From contig JBEPZZ010000064.1 of the NCBI GenBank assembly GCA_041640575.1, forward strand, positions 1-9,893: a stretch of DNA of 9,893 nt. Reading direction: 5' to 3'. Shown one piece after another: positions 247 through 9,891 of this stretch (the first letter of the stretch is position 1; every line of letters starts with the position of its first letter). The notes below the pieces were generated by a model. The model was not told where the DNA came from. It saw only the letters and a list, made by a program, of their open reading frames with translations, and did no database searches. Source of the DNA: Pseudothermotoga sp. GTDB lineage: Bacteria; Thermotogota; Thermotogae; Thermotogales; DSM-5069. The position numbers and the translations under genes were made by a program.

Positions 247-2514
247 CTAATGGATTAATCTCTCTAAACTAGCTGCAGCGCTCTCTAAGTCTATGTGATT
301 GCTACAATATGCAGTGCGCAGCAAGCTCTCAGGCACGTAACGATCATACTTGTTCATTTGCAGCATCTGGCGAGTTAGTTTCTTAATAAGTTCATGTGGT
401 TGCGGGATGTTCCGCAAAATAGCTTTGATTCGTTCCTTGAGAAGGTCGAGTGAGCTGATTTCAGCTTCTAAATAAAATGGATGAGAAAGTATCTTGATAC
501 CACCGTACTCCAACAGCAGCTTGATCGTGTTGATTTCCCGGGTCCCTTGCCACGGAAGCAGCATAAATCGCCCCCCGCCCAAATCTAGAATTGGCTGCGT
601 GGTCATATGGCTGGAATGTGCTAATTCACGGGCAGATTTCAATCGGCGGATGGCTTTGGTATGGAGATAGCTGTAAATGGTATCTTCTTTCAAGATACGG
701 CAAATGCTCTGGGAAATCCGTGTATGGATTGTTCTATCACCTCCAGTCCAATGGGCTTGTGCTTTTCCTCTTACACGTTCAACATGGATGATCTTTTTAT
801 CTTCATCAACATCAATGACTTTCCATGCACGACCAGCTAGCCGAAACCGGTCTCCAACAATGGGAAGCGACTGAACACTACCAATTTCCCGTGTTCCCTC
901 CCGCACCATATAGCCGGTTTCATCTTCAAATGTTGCATAGAAACGGTAATGGTTGACAAGACGTTCACCAGCCCTGCCGATAATCAGTCCACCACCCTCA
1001 ACGCGTTCTAGATGTTCAATTTGAAGAAGGTAACGAAGTAGTTCACGAAAATGGTCGAGAGACACTTGGTTAAAAGGAGACAAAGAGAGAACTTGTTCAG
1101 CCAGCTCAGGTGGTGTAAGCTCTGTTTGGGCCGTAATGATGCTCATTGTCTGGTGGTACAGGATACTTGTTGGTAAAGTGGGAATGTCGGGTGGCTCTAT
1201 CCATTTCTCTTCAATATAGAGTTGGATAATAGCTATTGTCTGTAGCAATCCCCATGGAATACGTTCTCCCAGAGTTGCATTTGGTTTTGGTTCATTCTCC
1301 GAAGAATAAAAAAACATTTTGGCATCGCCACCTCGACGTCCAGATCGACCCAAGCGTTGAACAAAACTGGAAACGGTGTTAGTTGCGTTTAATTGCAGTA
1401 CCTGATCCAAACTGCCTATATCAATACCCAATTCAAGCGTAACGGTCGCTGCAACACATGCCTTTTTGTTCGGGTCACGCATATCTTGTTCAGCGCGTTC
1501 CCGAAGCGTGGCCGAAATACTACCGTGATGGACATAATAACTGTCCTCATCTTCACCTTCCACACCCGCGAGGCGACGCAGGTTATGTATAATTTCCTCA
1601 GCAGCATTACGGCTGTTGGCAAAAATAAGTGTTTTGCGGTTACTATCAACTAATTTCGCCATATGTTGAAACATTTCAGCTGTTTCATCGACTACAGGCT
1701 CATCTGATAGCTCCTCCTCTGATGCAGGCTGTATCGTCAAAGATGCGCTTGCGTCTCCTACATCCGTCTGTGGTGATTCTTCATCAGATCCATCCACCCA
1801 ATCATCTTCTCTTGCTCTGATGAAGTGTTCCAGACCAAGCATGACTTTGCGGCGGCTCACAATATCATTAATATGAGTAACCTGACAATCAGTTCCACCA
1901 GCTAGCCATGCCGATGCTAATGTAGGTTCGCCAAGTGTGGCAGAAAGACCAATGCGACGCGCTGGTCTCGTCTGATATCGAGCCAGTCGCTGTAGTTGGC
2001 ACAAAACCTGCCGTCCTCGATCACTGCCAATGAGCGCATGGACTTCGTCCAGAACGACATAGCGCAAATCACCAAATAAACGGCTCAACTCTGTCTGGCG
2101 ATTAATGAGCATTGCTTCGAGAGATTCGGGGGTAATTTGGAGAATGCCTTGCCCGCTGCGAAGAAATCGTTGTTTTTTGCTCTGTGAAACATCTCCGTGC
2201 CAGCTTTGAACAGGTATGCTGCTGTCTTCTAGTAACCTTTCCAGTCGATGAAATTGATCGTTGATAAGCGCTTTGAGCGGGCCAATATACATTGCACCAA
2301 TTGATGACGATGGACGCTCAAACAGATCTGTCAGTATCGGCAAGAATGCAGCTTCAGTTTTGCCGCTGGCTGTTCCACTTGTAATCAAGACATGGTTTGG
2401 CGTGTCAAGGATGGCGCTGATGGCATCAACCTGTATGGGACGCAATTCCTCCCATTTTTCTCGGTAGATGAAATCCTGTATGAACGGAGCCAAGCGATAA
2501 AACGGATTCGTCAT
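247..2514 (-). CDS. sngC: Lhr-like DEAD/DEAH-box SF2 helicase, Shango SngC-like (755 aa)
   Basis: Full SF2 motif set: Q motif WEELRPIQ, I SGTASGKT, Ia PLKALINDQ, Ib ITPESL, II VVLDEVH, III GLSAT, IV LIFANSR, HHGS, V ATVTLELGIDIG, VI QRLGRSGRR. The ATG overlaps the upstream ATPase stop (ATGA at 2511-2514). The sngC symbol rests on context (downstream of DUF2791-like and TerB_N/C-like genes). Confidence 0.9.
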   Translation of the reverse strand: MTNPFYRLAPFIQDFIYREKWEELRPIQVDAISAILDTPNHVLITSGTASGKTEAAFLPILTDLFERPSSSIGAMYIGPLKALINDQFHRLERLLEDSSIPVQSWHGDVSQSKKQRFLRSGQGILQITPESLEAMLINRQTELSRLFGDLRYVVLDEVHALIGSDRGRQVLCQLQRLARYQTRPARRIGLSATLGEPTLASAWLAGGTDCQVTHINDIVSRRKVMLGLEHFIRAREDDWVDGSDEESPQTDVGDASASLTIQPASEEELSDEPVVDETAEMFQHMAKLVDSNRKTLIFANSRNAAEEIIHNLRRLAGVEGEDEDSYYVHHGSISATLRERAEQDMRDPNKKACVAATVTLELGIDIGSLDQVLQLNATNTVSSFVQRLGRSGRRGGDAKMFFYSSENEPKPNATLGERIPWGLLQTIAIIQLYIEEKWIEPPDIPTLPTSILYHQTMSIITAQTELTPPELAEQVLSLSPFNQVSLDHFRELLRYLLQIEHLERVEGGGLIIGRAGERLVNHYRFYATFEDETGYMVREGTREIGSVQSLPIVGDRFRLAGRAWKVIDVDEDKKIIHVERVRGKAQAHWTGGDRTIHTRISQSICRILKEDTIYSYLHTKAIRRLKSARELAHSSHMTTQPILDLGGGRFMLLPWQGTREINTIKLLLEYGGIKILSHPFYLEAEISSLDLLKERIKAILRNIPQPHELIKKLTRQMLQMNKYDRYVPESLLRTAYCSNHIDLESAAASLERLIH

Positions 2515-3878
2515 AACTCGAAGCTCTTGTAAGGTGATGCTGCGCTATCATCTTCATCGACTATCTCAGTTTCTGCTGTGACGGCTTCAGGATCACGTTC
2601 TACCCGTGAGGGTGTGAAGTCTTTATCAGCGACAACACCATCAAAAGATAAATCGGAATTTTGATACAATACATTTAATACTGCAATGAAATCCCGAACA
2701 ATCTCACGAGGCGTAAGTCTTTGCTCAGCGCCTAAGCGCTTACGAACCTCGTTAAGAAAAAACTCGATCTGCTTGTCTGTAACCGCGGATGTGTAAGAAT
2801 AGTGCAAAGCATGAATTCCACGGATACGTTGAAGAAGCACGAAAATTTCTTCAGGAGTCAGTGGTTCCAGCCGGAGTAATGGCCCTGAAAGATCCCGAAG
2901 ACCATTACGAGCGAAGCGGCTTTCCTCCAGTCGGGTGCGCAGCGCCTCGTAACTGAACAAACCGCGTCGAGTGTCCTCAACCATTTGAGGGGTCGCTCCC
3001 AAGATAACGCCGAGGTATTGAGCCTTTCCCTGCATTATATCGTTGAAAATTGACAGTAACCGTTCGTAGTTGTTATTTCGCGATGCTGTATGGCTGATCT
3101 TGTAAAGGTTGACAGCTTCGTCGATAAAGATTACAAGCCCTTTGTAGCCAATATCTTTCACAAAATGCGCGAGCAGCTTGATGTAGTCATACCAAGAAGA
3201 GTCCTCGATGATGACACGAACTCCAAGTGCCTCACGTGCTTCACCCTTGGTGCTGTACTCTCCGCGTAGCCAACGCATTGCCGCCGCTTTTTTTGTATCA
3301 TCTCCGCTCCGGTGTCCATGCCAATAAGCTAAAATGACTGTCGAAAAATCGAAGCCATGAACCATCCCTTCCATTTGATTAACTGTCGCACGGATACGAC
3401 TATCGACAGCTGATTCAAACTTGGGATCATTAGGCTGAATACCATCGTCTTGAATGACCAGTTGTTGGAGATCACTGATCCAACGTTCCAGTAAGGCACT
3501 AAAAGCACCACCATCAGAGCGGACTTTTGTCGCTGCATTGGTTAGCAACTCACGGTAGAGATTAAGTCCCTGATTCTTGGTTCCGGTCAAGCGTGCTTCT
3601 GGGCTGAGATCAGCGTCCATCACAACAAAGTTGCGCTGTAATGCGTAGTTACGAATTAGTTGGCACAGGAAGCTTTTCCCTGAGCCATAACGTCCTAGGA
3701 TCATTCGAAAGCTCGCACCACCTTCAGAAACAATATCATCAATATCTCTAAGCAGCACCTCAATCTCAGATTTACGCCCTACAGCGATATGTTCGAGACC
3801 AGTACGCGGGACAACACCGGCACTCAGCGAGTGAATGATGGCAGCCGAGACGCGTTTCGGCATTGTCATTGAAGTCAT
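2511..3878 (-). CDS. sngB: DUF2791 / BrxD-like P-loop ATPase, Shango SngB-like (455 aa)
   Basis: N-terminal SLSAGVVPRTGLEHIAVGR, Walker A GRYGSGKS, Walker B LVIFIDEA, WLRGE and RGLFSYEALRTRL segments typical of DUF2791 ATPases. SD-like GGGGAG lies 6 nt upstream of the ATG. Coupled to the helicase by an ATGA overlap. Confidence 0.88.
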   Translation of the reverse strand: MTSMTMPKRVSAAIIHSLSAGVVPRTGLEHIAVGRKSEIEVLLRDIDDIVSEGGASFRMILGRYGSGKSFLCQLIRNYALQRNFVVMDADLSPEARLTGTKNQGLNLYRELLTNAATKVRSDGGAFSALLERWISDLQQLVIQDDGIQPNDPKFESAVDSRIRATVNQMEGMVHGFDFSTVILAYWHGHRSGDDTKKAAAMRWLRGEYSTKGEAREALGVRVIIEDSSWYDYIKLLAHFVKDIGYKGLVIFIDEAVNLYKISHTASRNNNYERLLSIFNDIMQGKAQYLGVILGATPQMVEDTRRGLFSYEALRTRLEESRFARNGLRDLSGPLLRLEPLTPEEIFVLLQRIRGIHALHYSYTSAVTDKQIEFFLNEVRKRLGAEQRLTPREIVRDFIAVLNVLYQNSDLSFDGVVADKDFTPSRVERDPEAVTAETEIVDEDDSAASPYKSFEL

Positions 3879-3884
3879 TTGTAA

Positions 3885-3890
3885 CTCCCC
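3885..3890 (-). promoter_or_regulatory. Shine-Dalgarno GGGGAG for the DUF2791-like ATPase
   Basis: Lies in the 16-bp gap; 6-nt spacer to ATG at 3878. Confidence 0.65.
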
Positions 3891-3894
3891 TAAG

Positions 3895-6800
3895 TCAGTT
3901 TTGGTCGACGTCTGTACTTGTCGGATCGATCTTTGAGACTAGCGCTTGCCTGAGAAAATAACTCAGTAATGGACGATATTCTTCTGTGACGATTAGGTGT
4001 TCATTCTCGATACGTATCAATTGATCGCCGAGAATATCAAGTGAACGATTGTTGAGGTCGTCTAGAATGACGTTCAAGAACTGCCCCTGTAAAATGCTAT
4101 GAAAGTCAGATTCGTGCTGTTCCCAACCAGACTGCTTAAGTAATACCAGTATTTTTATGGCTGTTTCATCAGATGACAGCACATCAAGGAGACCTTGAAG
4201 TATTTTCTCGGACGAGTCGGGTATTTCTTGAGGGCTGTCGATCATGATTTCTTCTGAGACTGAAGACGATGAAGTCGCATCTTCTGTATTTAAGCCAACT
4301 GGCATTTCCTTGCTTTCGCCAACTGCTAGCAACCTCTCGCGCACAGCCTCTGACTGAGCTATCAAGTTATTAACCAAAGTGTAGTCGATAGTCATGTTTT
4401 CGTTATAAGACATGACAATTGTGTTACAGTTAGGATAATTCGTATTGAGCCAGTTGAGCGTCCAGTCATCTTGAGTGAAGAGAATGAACTGCATGTTAGA
4501 AGATTGATTAATTAAATAGGTCAAAATATTAACTTTGCGATTACGATCACAGTGTACAAATGGATCGTCCAACAGCATCGGTAGCGGCTCAGCTGATTGG
4601 CTCATCAACTGTGCAATACTAAACCGTAGGAGGAGATACACCAGATCGCGTGTGCCCGTGCTTAGTTGATCGACGTAAACCCACTGTTGGGTTTCAGGGG
4701 CAAGTAATCTAACAATAAGCGTCTCAGGATCAACGAGACTTTCAGTATAACGTCCTCCAGTGGCGTGGCTCAGACCACTATTCAGATAAGCTTGCAAACG
4801 AGGTGTAAATTGCTTCTGAAAAGTTGTGGATGCTTTCGCCAGTTCAGTCTGGGCTGTTTGCAGAGCTTCACCGAACCATTCCAGCCTTTTTAGTTCGGCA
4901 GTAGCCTCAGCATACTCTTCAAGGAGGCTTGCAAGATCAATCATGCTCTCTGACGCCTGTTTGGCTTCATTTGTCAGCATGACTTGTCTTTGCTTCATAT
5001 CTTGAATTTGTTGTTGTAATTTCTCGACTATGCTTTGGTAGTAATCGGTTGCTTCAACAGGCTTTAAAGATTCTGCATCAGGATTTTGATCGACAAGTGT
5101 TTGGAGTTGGCGTTCCAAATCTTCACGTTGTTTGGTTAGTTTATCAGGTTGGAAGGGAAATTCTTGGAGACGCCTCTCAGCCACCCGTGCCTCACGATCT
5201 GCGTTCTGCCAAGCAACATAGTTTTCGCGTTCAGATTTGTAATGCTCTAATTTTTCTTCCCAGCTCAGAGTGTCGTTGATTTTCGCCTCTTTATACAGTT
5301 CATGCAAATTTTGAAGAACTTGCTCATACTCCTCATTTTTGCGTCGCCTTTTAGCATCCTCATCAGCAGCATCCTTAATTTGAGTCTCAACATCTGAGAG
5401 ACGTTGCCTCAGCATATGGATTTGTTGATGCTCAACCTCAATGTCTTGGTCATGTCGAATTCCTTCAGGTAGAATGTCGTTAAGTTGTTCTTCCAAAGAT
5501 TTGAGTAACCTTTCAGCTTCCTGTGAAGCTGTTCTCGCCTCTTCCAGATTGTGACTAGCAACTTCGCTTGCTGTGACATTTTTCAGGTATTCGTCAATTT
5601 TAGCCGAAGCCTGCTCAAAGATTTTTGCTTCAATGGGAATATCGTCAACGCATAGTTCACGTCTCACTCTAGCTTCAACATCATTTTTTAACTGTTCAGA
5701 CTTCTTTACTGATTCTTGTGCATTCTTCCACTGAGTGTAAATGGGTAGCAAGTCGTTATATATAGCTATCTCACTCGGCGCAGAATTCTCTGTTTTGGCT
5801 TTGCGCTTTAGTGGATTGCATCCCTTTTTGTGGGGAACATCTAGAGGAGTATTTTTTAGGGCAAGAAATGCTGATTCTTCGATGTTTGCCCGTTTCCATT
5901 CTGCTGTATAAAACTCTACATCTGCCAATGATTTAGCTACATCTTTTTGAGCCGATTCATACAACTGCTGAAGTTTAGCCAGAGAGCTATGACCCATTTC
6001 GACATATCTGAATTCGCTTTGTAGCCTCGCCACAACGGATTGGGCTTTATCGACTTCAGCTTGAAGTTTTTCAACTTGTCTGTGAGCAGCCTCTACGGCT
6101 TGAGTGGCTTTTTCAATTTCCTTTTTCTTGGCGCTAATCCTATGAATAAGTTCAACTGGTAGGCTTTTGAAATTCTCAATTTGGGCAGTTAGATTCTGTT
6201 GTTCTTTTCTGAGTATCTCAAGTTTGTTTGATAGATTTGGACGTTCTGCGTCAGCCTCCAATGAAATGCGTCTAGCATCAAGGTCTAGTAATTGCTCGTA
6301 GATGTCATAGCGAAAATCACTCCACTTCTGAAGATCAGTGACTTTCCGTTTGGCTTCATCAGCTTCTAGTTGCAAGCTTGCAATGCGGTTGAGGGTTTCG
6401 GTAATATCGCTTAGCCTAGATTTCAATAAAAGTATTTGAGAGTCGGAATATTGCTTTTCTAACTGGGTTATATCCGCTTCACTCGTATTGACAGACGTTA
6501 AAACTTCCCAACTTTTTTTACGAGTTGCTCTTGCATCGTCTATGGCTTTTTTGAGTTGTTCAACACGTTTTTTAGTTACTGCAAGAGGTTTAGAGTGGGC
6601 ACGGGGTGTGCCTACTTTTTGCTTGAGGGTTATTTCGAGAAGTTCAAGGGCTTTATTTACAGTAAATCCATCTTTGGCCATTGTTGATGAAAGCCGCATA
6701 ATGGTTTCTGCAATCGGAATCGCGGATTGTTCAAGCAAAGCGAGTTCAGACTGCCGAACTATACAAACGTTTTCGAAGACATACTTGCCAATACCAAGTT

Positions 6801-7191
6801 GCTCCTCTGCAAAATAGAGCCGTCCGTGACTCTCAGCTCGAAACGTATCTGTAAGATTTCGCTGGTCGGACATTCGTATGAGAGTGGTTGAGATTTCTGG
6901 GGCAAAAGTACGTCGAATCTCAAAGGCTTCCCCGTTACTTAATCTGTATTTCAGTGTACCGCCGAAAGCTTCCATGTGAGACCATGGTTTATATCGATTG
7001 AGGGTATCATGATCCTTGGACGATATACGTCCAGTATCGAAAAAGCCGTAAAGCATTATTGCAACGGCTTCCATCAACGTTGATTTTCCTACTTCGTTTG
7101 GGCCATATACAAGATTCAAGCCTGATTTAAAGTCAAACGAACGATCTACCAGTTGGCGAAATCCCAACAGATCAATCTGGGTCAATTGCAT
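3895..7191 (-). CDS. Rad50/SbcC/YhaN-like coiled-coil ABC-ATPase fused to a C-terminal TerB_C-like domain (1098 aa)
   Basis: Walker A GPNEVGKST, Q-loop region CIVRQSEL, about 600 aa of heptad-rich helical sequence, signature QLSTGTRD, Walker B/D-loop PMLLDDPFVHCD. The last ~166 aa (3895-4395) are homologous to the C-terminus of the ORF at 8503-9891. SD GAGGTGAT upstream; 20-bp overlap with the phosphoesterase gene. Confidence 0.88.
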   Translation of the reverse strand: MQLTQIDLLGFRQLVDRSFDFKSGLNLVYGPNEVGKSTLMEAVAIMLYGFFDTGRISSKDHDTLNRYKPWSHMEAFGGTLKYRLSNGEAFEIRRTFAPEISTTLIRMSDQRNLTDTFRAESHGRLYFAEEQLGIGKYVFENVCIVRQSELALLEQSAIPIAETIMRLSSTMAKDGFTVNKALELLEITLKQKVGTPRAHSKPLAVTKKRVEQLKKAIDDARATRKKSWEVLTSVNTSEADITQLEKQYSDSQILLLKSRLSDITETLNRIASLQLEADEAKRKVTDLQKWSDFRYDIYEQLLDLDARRISLEADAERPNLSNKLEILRKEQQNLTAQIENFKSLPVELIHRISAKKKEIEKATQAVEAAHRQVEKLQAEVDKAQSVVARLQSEFRYVEMGHSSLAKLQQLYESAQKDVAKSLADVEFYTAEWKRANIEESAFLALKNTPLDVPHKKGCNPLKRKAKTENSAPSEIAIYNDLLPIYTQWKNAQESVKKSEQLKNDVEARVRRELCVDDIPIEAKIFEQASAKIDEYLKNVTASEVASHNLEEARTASQEAERLLKSLEEQLNDILPEGIRHDQDIEVEHQQIHMLRQRLSDVETQIKDAADEDAKRRRKNEEYEQVLQNLHELYKEAKINDTLSWEEKLEHYKSERENYVAWQNADREARVAERRLQEFPFQPDKLTKQREDLERQLQTLVDQNPDAESLKPVEATDYYQSIVEKLQQQIQDMKQRQVMLTNEAKQASESMIDLASLLEEYAEATAELKRLEWFGEALQTAQTELAKASTTFQKQFTPRLQAYLNSGLSHATGGRYTESLVDPETLIVRLLAPETQQWVYVDQLSTGTRDLVYLLLRFSIAQLMSQSAEPLPMLLDDPFVHCDRNRKVNILTYLINQSSNMQFILFTQDDWTLNWLNTNYPNCNTIVMSYNENMTIDYTLVNNLIAQSEAVRERLLAVGESKEMPVGLNTEDATSSSSVSEEIMIDSPQEIPDSSEKILQGLLDVLSSDETAIKILVLLKQSGWEQHESDFHSILQGQFLNVILDDLNNRSLDILGDQLIRIENEHLIVTEEYRPLLSYFLRQALVSKIDPTSTDVDQN
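3974..3996. repeat. 23-bp perfect direct repeat, copy 1 (cgatattcttctgtgacgattag)
   Basis: Identical to 8531-8553. Encodes LIVTEEY(R) on the minus strand, inside the duplicated TerB_C-like domain. Confidence 0.95.
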
Positions 7192-8266
7192 TTGTTATCA
7201 CCTCTACACCATCTAGTGCTTGCATAGCGACATGCAAAGCATTATGAATCCGAGACCGATCTTCTGGATTTGTTTCTTGCAAACAATCCAAGAATTGCTT
7301 TGCAAGAAAGCCGCGTACAGTCGGTTCCTTTGCAAGCATTTCTAGATCATAAGGAACGTTTAATCGTGTGACAAATCTTATAGGTTCTTCAATTATTTCA
7401 CCCAAGTAAGAAACATCAATTGCACATTGCGGTGCACCTGTGAGCATAATTGTAAGATGGTGTGGCTGTTTCATATGGTTTCTAATCACTTTACGAACCT
7501 TTTCTTCAACACAACCCATATCTTTGCATCCCGATAAATCCACATCTACTGAGTAATACTGCCAACGGCCAGTTTGGATAAATTCAGTCCGAGTGTTACC
7601 CTGCTCGACAGTAATTAATGTAATGCCATGCTCTCTACTATCAGCTGCAGGTTCAATAGATTCAGGACTGCCTGACATGACACCGTTTGGGAAAGTATGG
7701 TGTTGGTGCTCTCCACCAAGAAGAGCAAAATCCATACCACTGTGTTTTAGTATCTCCTGATTGAGAAAAGAATCATTTGGATTTTGAGCACTAGGATAAT
7801 GAAGAAGGAGCAGATTTATTCCTTCGTTTCGCTCCCACGAACCTAGAAGATCAGTCAAGGGTATATATGGATAAGCCGCTCCCCACACAGTCATTTCAGG
7901 ATTCAATCGGAATGGACTCAGTGTTTGGGTAGTAAAGATATGAACATTGGCTGGGAAACGCCAACGAGAATATAAAGAGTCTTGGCCGTATGTATCTGCG
8001 CTTCCGGGGGAAATTAGCACAGGTATTGGAGCAATTTGTTCGAACTGCTCTGAAAGGATCTTCAAAGTTGATGGAGTAACCGTATCTTGTTCAAACAAAT
8101 CACCCGCAATCGTCACCACATCGACGGTTCTGTCAATCGCAATGTCAAAAATTAGTTTTAGAACCTGAATTAGTCCCTCACGTCGAGTCTTTCCAACTGA
8201 AGGAGTTAGGCCAGCATCTGCAAACGAACGATCTAGATGTAGATCTGCAAAATGTAAAATTTTCAA
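7172..8266 (-). CDS. Mre11/SbcD/YhaO-like calcineurin-type metallophosphoesterase with degenerate active-site motifs (364 aa)
   Basis: MKILHFADLHLD (motif I), AGDLFE (II), PGSAD (III, canonical GNHD), LLLLH (IV), ALLGGEH (V, canonical GHxH), SGSPE. TTG start with SD GAGGTG 8 nt upstream. Lies directly upstream of the Rad50-like gene, as in sbcD-sbcC and yhaO-yhaN pairs. Confidence 0.87.
   Translation of the reverse strand: MKILHFADLHLDRSFADAGLTPSVGKTRREGLIQVLKLIFDIAIDRTVDVVTIAGDLFEQDTVTPSTLKILSEQFEQIAPIPVLISPGSADTYGQDSLYSRWRFPANVHIFTTQTLSPFRLNPEMTVWGAAYPYIPLTDLLGSWERNEGINLLLLHYPSAQNPNDSFLNQEILKHSGMDFALLGGEHQHHTFPNGVMSGSPESIEPAADSREHGITLITVEQGNTRTEFIQTGRWQYYSVDVDLSGCKDMGCVEEKVRKVIRNHMKQPHHLTIMLTGAPQCAIDVSYLGEIIEEPIRFVTRLNVPYDLEMLAKEPTVRGFLAKQFLDCLQETNPEDRSRIHNALHVAMQALDGVEVITNAIDPD
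7197..7204 (-). promoter_or_regulatory. Shine-Dalgarno GAGGTGAT for the Rad50-like gene
   Basis: gaggtgataacaaATG, inside the 3' end of the phosphoesterase gene. Confidence 0.7.
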
Positions 8267-8274
8267 ATCCTTCG

Positions 8275-8280
8275 CACCTC
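8275..8280 (-). promoter_or_regulatory. Shine-Dalgarno GAGGTG for the metallophosphoesterase
   Basis: 8-nt spacer to TTG at 8266. Confidence 0.7.
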
Positions 8281-8336
8281 AAGCACGTTTTCCAACCGAG
8301 TCTTAGTCTTCTGAAGATAGATCACCTATCTCGACG

Positions 8337-8365
8337 ATATTTCCTAATAACTATATTTCCTAATA
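8337..8365. repeat. Tandem 13-bp direct repeat atatttcctaata x2 (period 16 bp)
   Basis: Exact copies at 8337-8349 and 8353-8365, separated by act, in the 236-bp intergenic region. Confidence 0.9.
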
Positions 8366-8378
8366 CTAAGGAACGCAA
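8350..8378 (-). promoter_or_regulatory. Candidate sigma70-type promoter for the phosphoesterase-to-helicase genes
   Basis: Minus strand TTGCGT (8378-8373), 17-nt spacer, TATAGT (8355-8350). About 83 nt upstream of the TTG start and overlapped by the 13-bp repeats. Consensus match only. Confidence 0.45.
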
Positions 8379-8502
8379 ATTCGTTAATTTTGTTAATCAA
8401 CAAATCAGACGTAGTGCGTACACTTTGTGCAATACCATCCAAGCGCATCATGACATCATCTTTCAATAGCAAAGCGTTGACTCAATGTCCAGCATGAGTG
8501 GG

Positions 8503-9891
8503 CTAATTAAGTAAATGCTCGATTTCACCTCGATATTCTTCTGTGACGATTAGTTCATCATCTTCAATAAAGATCAACTGATCGCCTAGTAATTCAATAG
8601 CGCGTTCGTTGATACGATCAAGCACAACGTTCAGAAACTCACCATTCAAGATATTCTGAGCAAGATCACTGCGCATCTTCCAATTATTTGTCCGTAAATT
8701 ACGTAGCAGATTAATTGCTACCTTGCTTCCTCTTATGACTTTGGCAACTCCTTCAAATTCAGTTGGCAAATGAACAGGCGTATCTGGAGAACGCTCAGTG
8801 TCTAAAACAACAGGAAGGCGTTCATCAGCTTTTTCTAGGCCGTTTTCAGTCACCAGAGCCTTGTTGGCAGTAATCTCACTTTCTTCGTTTACCTGAAGGC
8901 GATTACGGACAGTATCTGACTCTAAGGTAAGTAATTCAACCTTGGCATAATCAATAACCAAGGGCTTATCTGTGGTAATTGTTATTCTATCCTCTATAGA
9001 TGCATCTGATTGTTTACGGATTTTCTGGTCTTGGACAGGGAAGGCTGAATCTAGAATGGCTATCCATTCCGACGGTAATTCGATGCCTTTTAATGTTCCT
9101 CGATAGTTTTGCTGACGTCTCAATCGGTTTTCGATATATTTCAAAGTCGAGGCCATAGCGTTACGCAGATCACTGGCGTTGAGCCAAGCTGGCACATTGG
9201 CAACAGTGATCATTCCATGCTTTCCTTCATAAATAGCTCCTGTAAATGGATAGCGTTTGATTTGGTGTACATCGACCGGACGGTAATAGTTGAACAAAGT
9301 TTTTCCATGCTTTTGACGGAGATATTTATCAATGATATCTAATCCGCGACGGAGTTCCCGATCTATAACTCCGTTGTTATTATGCTGTTGATAGAATTTA
9401 CTATTTGTGTATTTATGACCGCTGATTAATTCGAGCATATCACTAGATAAGTGCATTAAGTTTGCACTACCATCAGACAATAAAGCTTCTATCAAAAGAT
9501 TCCGATCAGTTAGGTGTCCACCGCGTTTAATGGCATAGGAATACCAGTTCATCGGTGTCTGCGGTAGTCTATAGACAACTATAAAGTCTGCTAACCAGTC
9601 GATAAGGTAGCTATCCAGTTCTGGATGCTTTACTCGATAGCGCCTCCAGATATTTGCTAGATGCTCAAAAGCATCCTCCGCTGAGTCAAACCCAATAAGA
9701 TGTATAACCTCGTAAACGTGCAGAAATATATAACTTAGGTCAGTGGGTAAATAGCTGCTGTGCCTTACTTGTGAGCGCCAGTAAAAATACCATTTGCGTT
9801 GAGCACTATTCATGGACTCATATGTGGGCCAGTATTGCTTAAAAGGCGCTGGGTCAGCCTGTCGTTCAGTCGTATTAACAAATTTTTTCGC
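8503..9891 (-). CDS. sngA: TerB_N + TerB_C domain protein, Shango SngA-like (5'-partial; frame open to the window edge)
   Basis: The frame stays open upstream of the tracked Met at 9813 and reads AKKFVNTTERQADPAPFKQYWPTYESMNSAQRKWYFYWR. The YWPtY...Q...Y..W segment and TDLSYIFLHVYE are typical of TerB_N. C-terminal IDY..V..L..ES..VR.RL and LDRINERAIELLGDQLI are typical of TerB_C. The true start is outside the window. Confidence 0.85.
   Translation of the reverse strand, partial: AKKFVNTTERQADPAPFKQYWPTYESMNSAQRKWYFYWRSQVRHSSYLPTDLSYIFLHVYEVIHLIGFDSAEDAFEHLANIWRRYRVKHPELDSYLIDWLADFIVVYRLPQTPMNWYSYAIKRGGHLTDRNLLIEALLSDGSANLMHLSSDMLELISGHKYTNSKFYQQHNNNGVIDRELRRGLDIIDKYLRQKHGKTLFNYYRPVDVHQIKRYPFTGAIYEGKHGMITVANVPAWLNASDLRNAMASTLKYIENRLRRQQNYRGTLKGIELPSEWIAILDSAFPVQDQKIRKQSDASIEDRITITTDKPLVIDYAKVELLTLESDTVRNRLQVNEESEITANKALVTENGLEKADERLPVVLDTERSPDTPVHLPTEFEGVAKVIRGSKVAINLLRNLRTNNWKMRSDLAQNILNGEFLNVVLDRINERAIELLGDQLIFIEDDELIVTEEYRGEIEHLLN
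8531..8553. repeat. 23-bp perfect direct repeat, copy 2 (cgatattcttctgtgacgattag)
   Basis: Identical to 3974-3996; offset 4557 bp. Confidence 0.95.

Follow-up and report, generated by a model that had tools for sequence, protein, structure and literature searches.

Contig JBEPZZ010000064.1 of the Pseudothermotoga sp. assembly GCA_041640575.1 (C64 in our labeling), which was analyzed over its entire length of 9,893 nt and is referred to here as the window, carries the three genes of the defense system Shango, sngA, sngB, and sngC. Between sngA and sngB lies a gene pair encoding an Mre11/SbcD-like protein and a Rad50/YhaN-like SMC ATPase. The source assembly comprises 1.97 Mb in 123 contigs and has a completeness of 93.7%. 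On balance, we favor the view that the five genes represent one working Shango unit with a built-in Mre11-Rad50-like pair. Shango is a validated anti-phage system of three genes, and the portions of its published descriptions covered here offer, as to mechanism, only a guess of membrane surveillance (PMC10250203; preprint 10.1101/2022.05.11.491447). A full-text search of the literature found no paper that joins Shango to an Mre11, Rad50, SbcCD, or SMC pair, in agreement with a first-pass annotation of this DNA that knew of no Shango subtype with such an architecture. The same annotation had proposed that the pair belongs to the system rather than to its neighborhood, which is now supported by a TerB_C tail on the ATPase, by recurrence of the arrangement, and by purifying selection.

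Eight open reading frames (ORFs) of at least 80 aa are present in the window. The five long ones are all located on the minus strand (Table 1), and their order from 5' to 3' is sngA, the Mre11-like gene, the ATPase gene, sngB, and sngC. The Mre11-like and ATPase genes overlap by 20 nt (7172-7191), the ATPase gene is separated from sngB by a 16-nt gap (3879-3894) containing the Shine-Dalgarno sequence GGGGAG, and sngB and sngC are joined by an ATGA overlap (2511-2514). The ORF list and the junction sequences confirm what had been read initially, namely five co-oriented genes of which the last four are tightly coupled. Three points correct the initial layout: the 5' end of sngA is cut, positions 8267-8502 are not a spacer but a decayed remnant of sngA, and the Mre11-like gene starts at the TTG at 8266. 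No terminator-like site was found within 8267-8502 or 3879-3894, the two non-coding stretches between genes, and the counts of promoter-like and terminator-like sites in the window were not above those in shuffled sequence. An Rfam scan of the window gave no matches.

The three outer genes, which had been taken for Shango genes at first sight, all matched the corresponding Shango hidden Markov models. SngB (P0004) scored 4.8e-184 with the PADLOC model SngB vs 1.1e-53 with BrxD, and 5e-163 with Pfam BrxC_BrxD (PF10923). For SngC, the values were 3.8e-236 with the PADLOC model SngC vs 4.8e-137 with BrxHI, together with Pfam DEAD (2.1e-30) and Helicase_C (3.9e-17). SngA (P0001) matched the PADLOC model SngA at 5.3e-55 over profile positions 111-526 of 528, and Pfam TerB_N at 2.5e-20. 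Its TerB_C match reached 23.4 bits in the truncated window copy, below the gathering score of 26.3, and 50.4 bits in the SngA homologue P0040, which is encoded on a related contig of 6,077 nt (L002) that served as the comparison reference. Pfam TerB proper (PF05099) was found neither in window SngA nor in two canonical Anaerolineae SngA proteins. TerB_N and TerB_C were reportedly defined by Anantharaman et al. in 2012.

The 5' end of sngA is cut by the contig end. Its frame is open from 9891, and the listed ATG (ORF 9813..8503) is internal. P0040 aligns from residue 217 to window position 9891 and has, accordingly, at least 216 additional N-terminal residues, among which residues 1-40 and 54-77 form hydrophobic segments (Kyte-Doolittle; L002:2-730, P0040 residues 1-100). 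Judged from these segments, the SngA of L002 is probably membrane-anchored, and the corresponding part of the window gene lies beyond the contig end. Many of the SngA-like proteins P0162-P0236 are 1,160-1,400 aa long, with approximately 630 N-terminal residues without a Pfam match preceding TerB_N and TerB_C; they look like an undescribed class of long SngA proteins. SngB and 23 relatives share a conserved C-terminal peptide, SPYxSFxL, which follows an acidic linker (last eight residues of P0004, window 2514-2537) and could be a short docking motif.

The feature that ties the ATPase (P0003) to Shango is its C-terminus. Residues 925-1080 align with residues 277-435 of window SngA, with 55 identities in 161 positions (34%) and an E value of 1e-21 in BLASTP. 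In a tree of 63 TerB_C segments, the seven ATPase tails clustered together, nested within a clade of 16 rows (support 90/90) to which the two cognate SngA tails belong as well. The SngA-derived domain that had been suspected on the ATPase is borne out by both results, and the topology fits a single capture from a related SngA rather than a recent copy. A structural model of the tail, with a predicted local distance difference test (pLDDT) value of 79.6, comprises a long helix, a disordered acidic linker, and a helix-plus-hairpin domain. Foldseek returned weak matches to MarR/ArsR-type winged-helix proteins, none at E <= 0.001, and we tentatively regard the modeled domain as winged-helix-like. 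When the tail was searched against 1.84 billion representatives, 90 proteins were obtained at E <= 0.001. All 28 long matches scanned were TerB_N+TerB_C proteins, and none carried an SMC or ABC domain. Thus, the fusion is specific to the embedded ATPase clade. The short match P0161 is a C-terminal fragment of another ATPase-TerB_C fusion. Among 35 matches to the ATPase itself, five clusters (P0006-P0010; 45-84% identity, 98-100% coverage) keep the tail, and the next relatives, with 83-84% coverage, lack it. Counted over full-length relatives, the tail is present in 6 of 6.

The remainder of the protein resembles Rad50. In addition to the Pfam matches listed in Table 1, archaeal NCBIfam Rad50 models were hit at approximately 1e-13, all below their cut-offs, and M. 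jannaschii Rad50 in the PDB at 2.9e-8. A long middle region separates the two halves of the head, which correspond to residues ~1-200 and ~780-915. Invariant in 17 ATPase relatives are the Walker A residue K36, Q147 of the Q-loop, S844 and G846 of the signature motif, and D875 and D876 of Walker B. At the H-loop position the window protein has a Q (FTQDD, residues 904-908, window 4468-4482), where M. jannaschii Rad50 has H and the stand-alone consensus K. The ATPase protein sequence contains no CxxC zinc hook. Midway along the chain, G457-C458 (KKGC, residues 456-459, window 5815-5826) are invariant together with W432, I477, and P483, a pattern that suggests an apex different from the CxxC hook in this family.

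The Mre11-like protein (P0002) matched Pfam Metallophos at 2.7e-7 and TIGR00619 (sbcd) at 1.6e-10, the latter below its cut-off. When a profile of 42 family members was compared with the PDB, all 27 matches were Mre11 or SbcD, the best at 3.3e-18. An AlphaFold2 model (pLDDT 87.2; predicted template modeling score 0.80) gave 3tho_B, T. maritima Mre11 in complex with Rad50, as the top Foldseek match (E 4.1e-15, 388 columns), and the top listed matches were all Mre11 or SbcD. According to this model, the fold is full length, with phosphoesterase domain, capping domain, and a C-terminal helix pair at the Rad50-binding position. Alignment with P. furiosus and T. maritima Mre11 revealed that motifs I (DLH), II (GD), and IV (H) are kept, whereas motif III reads GSAD instead of the expected GNHD and motif V GGEH instead of GHxH. 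Within the embedded clade, the motif III His is missing in 8 of 8 sequences and the Asn in 7 of 8, and motif V is GG(E/N)H in all eight. The canonical forms GNHD and GHYH occur in more distant stand-alone relatives; those nearest to the clade already vary. In the P. furiosus structures, residues of motifs III and V hold the second metal and stabilize the transition state. PDB entry 3dsd, titled as an H85S mutant, has GNSD at motif III. On these alignments, the Mre11-like subunit is probably a weakened or dead nuclease that has been retained for another role. A quick tree of 65 rows, which included every second one of the stand-alone relatives P0256-P0368 and is subject to long-branch warnings, unites the eight embedded sequences in a single long-stemmed group, with a value of 99 in the Shimodaira-Hasegawa-like approximate likelihood ratio test (SH-aLRT).

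Recurrence was assessed with one genome per species. In 185,579 species, 238 relatives of the ATPase were found. Among the best 80 of these 238 loci, the Mre11-like gene adjoins the ATPase gene in 71, and sngA and the tail are present as well in one only, L002; the fetched flanks of the other 79 contained no SngA, SngB, SngC, or tail at E <= 1e-5. In L002 the order sngA, Mre11-like gene, ATPase gene was read directly up to the contig end, which lies inside the ATPase gene. A split in this ATPase gene, considered as decay, proved to be a 100-N scaffold gap. An SngB query found nothing in the 1.1-Mb genome holding L002, from which nothing follows because the contig stops short of the sngB position. 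In five sets, relatives of the ATPase, SngB, and the Mre11-like protein agree in their sources and in the size of their longest contig: P0008, P0041, and P0252 (14,361 nt), P0006 and P0042 (10,586 nt), P0007 and P0044 (10,954 nt), P0254 and P0049 (12,911 nt), and P0253 and P0370 (29,101 nt). The gene order looked for beyond the window was therefore found directly, in part, in L002, and we infer that five further contigs carry family members together.

In the canonical Anaerolineae loci L173 and L174, sngA, sngB, and sngC are directly adjacent. The window does not have this three-gene cassette, as two genes (4.4 kb) separate sngA from sngB, and comparison with the canonical loci identifies the Mre11-Rad50-like pair as an insertion at the sngA-sngB junction. 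Approximately 170 nt upstream of the canonical Shango in L174 and on the same strand, a gene (L174:4026-7361) encodes a UvrD-type helicase of 1111 aa that carries a PD-(D/E)XK nuclease domain at its C-terminus. In a sample of a Chloroflexota class, SngB was detected at E <= 1e-50 in 4 of 401 genomes (45-58% identity), and in a Chloroflexota family sample in 6 of 401 (48-50% identity); both yielded canonical distant Shango only. SngB relatives are known at 78-89% identity.

Table 1. Features of the window, positions counted from its first nucleotide
Feature	Position	Strand	Evidence
sngA, partial (TerB_N + first TerB_C module)	8503..9891	-	PADLOC SngA, Pfam TerB_N
Decayed sngA 3' remnant	8267..8502	-	Translations, tblastn, nucleotide alignment vs L002
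Mre11/SbcD-like phosphoesterase, 364 aa	7172..8266	-	Pfam Metallophos, PDB profile search, Foldseek
Rad50/SbcC/YhaN-like SMC-type ABC ATPase, 1098 aa	3895..7191	-	Pfam AAA_23, AAA_27, SMC_N
TerB_C tail of ATPase (residues 921-1098)	3895..4431	-	BLASTP vs SngA tail
sngB, BrxD-like ORC/Cdc6-type AAA+ ATPase, 455 aa	2511..3878	-	PADLOC SngB, Pfam BrxC_BrxD
sngC, Lhr/BrxHI-like superfamily 2 (SF2) helicase, 755 aa	247..2514	-	PADLOC SngC, Pfam DEAD, Helicase_C

The pair could be a passenger, that is, a self-sufficient Mre11-Rad50-like module that landed in a Shango operon and shares its transcription without any joint function. Such pairs can work alone, given that 71 of the best 80 related loci have the Mre11-like gene beside the SMC-like gene and no Shango gene within 10 kb. 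Nesting is also frequent among defense genes, and the damage in the window affects sngA and spares the pair. We nevertheless regard a passenger as unlikely. The ATPase bears a Shango-specific domain that is otherwise confined to TerB_N+TerB_C proteins (all 28 scanned). In their trees, the Mre11-like sequences of embedded pairs fall into one group, and so do the SMC tails. Moreover, translational overlaps exist on both sides, and the order is kept in relatives. If the pair were a mere passenger, the locus would be a curiosity of operon nesting. Two metagenome contigs carry a gene for an SngC/Lhr-like helicase near stand-alone Mre11-like/SMC-like pairs (L101:76-783 and L136:7385-8503; 37% and 28% identity to SngC), which hints at a wider link of Lhr-type helicases with Mre11-like pairs.

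The locus may also be regarded as dying, in the window copy or perhaps in the whole small clade, with fusion and insertion as neutral accidents. The 237-nt stretch between sngA and the Mre11-like gene is indeed a ruined second TerB_C-like repeat, of a kind present in the SngA of L002 and in many other SngA C-termini. Compared with L002, the 3' end of sngA has suffered four lesions: a +1 frameshift that creates the stop, a tandem duplication of ~17 nt, and two deletions, one of 91 nt and one of 29 nt. L002 has kept the full 3' end, and its Mre11-like gene begins with a GTG that overlaps the sngA stop (GTGA). In the window this GTG reads GCG, and the start is likely the TTG at 8266, two codons downstream of the lost GTG and with GAGG ahead of it. 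A further sign of decay is P0154 (715 aa, on a contig of 10,470 nt), in which an Mre11-like part (40% identity to P0002) is joined to SngB residues 98-455 (79% identity), with the ATPase gene and the SngB Walker A missing. This protein arose either by deletion or as an artifact of assembly. The family is rare, and the catalytic residues are lost in all eight Mre11-like members.

We nonetheless consider this view improbable. The four long frames (364, 1098, 455, and 755 aa) are intact, and the ATPase and helicase motifs are invariant. The ratio of nonsynonymous to synonymous substitutions (dN/dS) between the window and L002, at a dS of ~0.3, is 0.38 for SngA, 0.32 for the Mre11-like gene, and 0.21 and 0.15 for the N- and C-terminal pieces of the ATPase. 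The values of 0.15-0.32 indicate that the middle genes are kept by purifying selection. In addition, the full sngA 3' end exists in L002, and relatives with as little as 45% identity retain the fusion. The first-pass annotation had named a one-off occurrence with signs of decay as speaking against its proposal; the arrangement is no one-off, as L002 repeats the order, but the signs of decay are there at the 3' end of sngA.

Together with the sngA lesions and P0154, several observations weigh against one working unit. The arrangement is very rare, with one occurrence in the best 80 loci from 185,579 species genomes. The five further contigs are assigned by their equal sizes and not by sequence, and P0010, the most distant fusion (45% identity; contig of 53,764 nt), lies outside the contexts that were read or inferred. 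Among metagenome contigs, none of 80 loci had the tail, SngA, or SngB in a scan that used generic N-terminal patterns, and viral contigs contained no match to the family. The loss of nuclease residues in the Mre11-like protein is read from alignments alone, and the winged helix of the tail could bind DNA instead of protein. Finally, the composition of the contig sets it apart from the rest of its bin, which leaves even its host unsure.

The GC content of the contig is 43.8% vs 39.6% for the genome (z = +3.6), the second highest among 99 contigs of at least 5 kb, and none of the 139 other 9.9-kb chunks lies as far from the genome centroid in tetranucleotide composition. The proteins of the window look Chloroflexota-like. 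Named SngB relatives at 78-80% identity belong to metagenome-assembled genomes (MAGs) of Anaerolineaceae, and one ATPase relative at 45% identity to a Chloroflexota MAG. Either the contig was acquired horizontally, as an island, or it was mis-binned. That the five genes serve not immunity but membrane-tethered processing of DNA ends, for the cell's own repair or for incoming transforming DNA, with the Shango-type parts as helicase engine, is quite improbable. In its favor, the source genome, at 93.7% completeness, has no second Mre11-like gene (tblastn, E <= 1e-3), and SbcE/YhaN of B. subtilis has been linked to break repair and competence. Against it, the contig composition is foreign, and none of the 150 other genomes examined from the phylum has a tail match at E <= 1e-5, as would be expected of a mobile accessory locus rather than a housekeeping one. 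Moreover, Shango itself protects against phages in the parts of its descriptions considered here (PMC10250203; preprint 10.1101/2022.05.11.491447).

The locus shares with Shango three proteins that match the PADLOC Sng models best, the A...B-C order, and the ATGA coupling of sngB and sngC. It differs by the two extra genes between sngA and sngB and by a second TerB_C-bearing protein; moreover, SngA relatives of the clade have hydrophobic N-termini, and the window copy lacks the second TerB_C repeat. With Mre11-Rad50/SbcCD and YhaO-YhaN, the pair has in common the nuclease gene preceding the ATPase gene, the full-length Mre11 fold, the ABC motifs, and AAA_27. In B. subtilis nomenclature, the YhaO-YhaN branch corresponds to SbcF-SbcE. 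The nearest stand-alone pairs stem from Chloroflexota MAGs and show ~28-37% identity. Unlike Mre11-Rad50/SbcCD, the window pair lacks the Asn and His of motif III, the first His of motif V, and the CxxC hook; its ATPase has an added C-terminal TerB_C, and the pair is embedded in a defense operon.

Another parallel is Lamassu (LmuABC/DdmABC), which descends from SbcCD and senses ends of double-stranded DNA (PMC12663957). Both have a Rad50/SbcC-derived SMC-like sensor or candidate sensor in an immune context and an Mre11/SbcD partner whose function is reduced in Lamassu (PMC12663957) and probably also in the window. In contrast to Lamassu, the window has a full-length Mre11-like protein and, as partner module, a loader-helicase pair. 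The window does not encode Lamassu itself: LmuB matches were weak and partial (best 1.6e-15), and the contig gave no LmuA or LmuC match. SngB and SngC are homologous to BrxD and BrxHI, the dyad of type 2 BREX. BrxD, an AAA+ ATPase of the ORC/Cdc6 type, is described as having no extra domains and as tightly linked to BrxHI, of which it is a proposed loader or activator (PMC12839542). The Sng models score far above the Brx models, and assignment to type 2 BREX was rejected, since no PglZ, PglX, BrxC, or PglW was found on the 9.9-kb contig, beyond whose ends nothing is seen.

For the five genes as one Shango unit, we propose the following course. The pair would have been derived once from YhaO/YhaN (SbcF/SbcE)-like repair genes, which are common in Chloroflexota. 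On joining Shango, the ATPase would have gained one C-terminal TerB_C module of SngA, consisting of helix, acidic linker, and winged helix, and the Mre11-like subunit would have lost key nuclease residues. By analogy with SbcCD and Lamassu, the Rad50-like dimer with its Mre11-like partner may act as an ATP-driven clamp or sensor of DNA ends or of unusual incoming DNA. The TerB_C tail would plug the ATPase into the socket used by the TerB_C of SngA. This putative socket would most likely be on SngB, an ORC/Cdc6-type ATPase without a winged helix of its own, because its BREX homologue BrxD, which has no further domains, pairs with a helicase and perhaps loads it, and because SngB itself ends in the conserved SPYxSFxL peptide; alternatively, the socket may be on SngC or on DNA, or the SngA tail may contact the ATPase tail. 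The SngB loader and the SngC helicase would then be engaged on foreign DNA, and SngA would hold the assembly at the membrane.

A more far-reaching interpretation, which we put forward only as a tentative possibility, is that the locus represents a second independent co-option of Mre11-Rad50 into immunity, at an earlier stage than Lamassu, the Mre11 having kept its full length and its active site being eroded already, and that TerB_C is a portable docking module coupling sensors, namely membrane-bound SngA and a Rad50-like clamp sensing DNA ends, to the SngB-SngC engine. If this were true, Shango would gain a testable trigger, DNA ends, and Lamassu would be joined by another case of repair proteins serving as immune sensors, here with the nuclease subunit half-eroded. 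The variant points to TerB_C as a possible link to the ATPase-helicase pair and to DNA ends or odd structures as a possible target of Shango.

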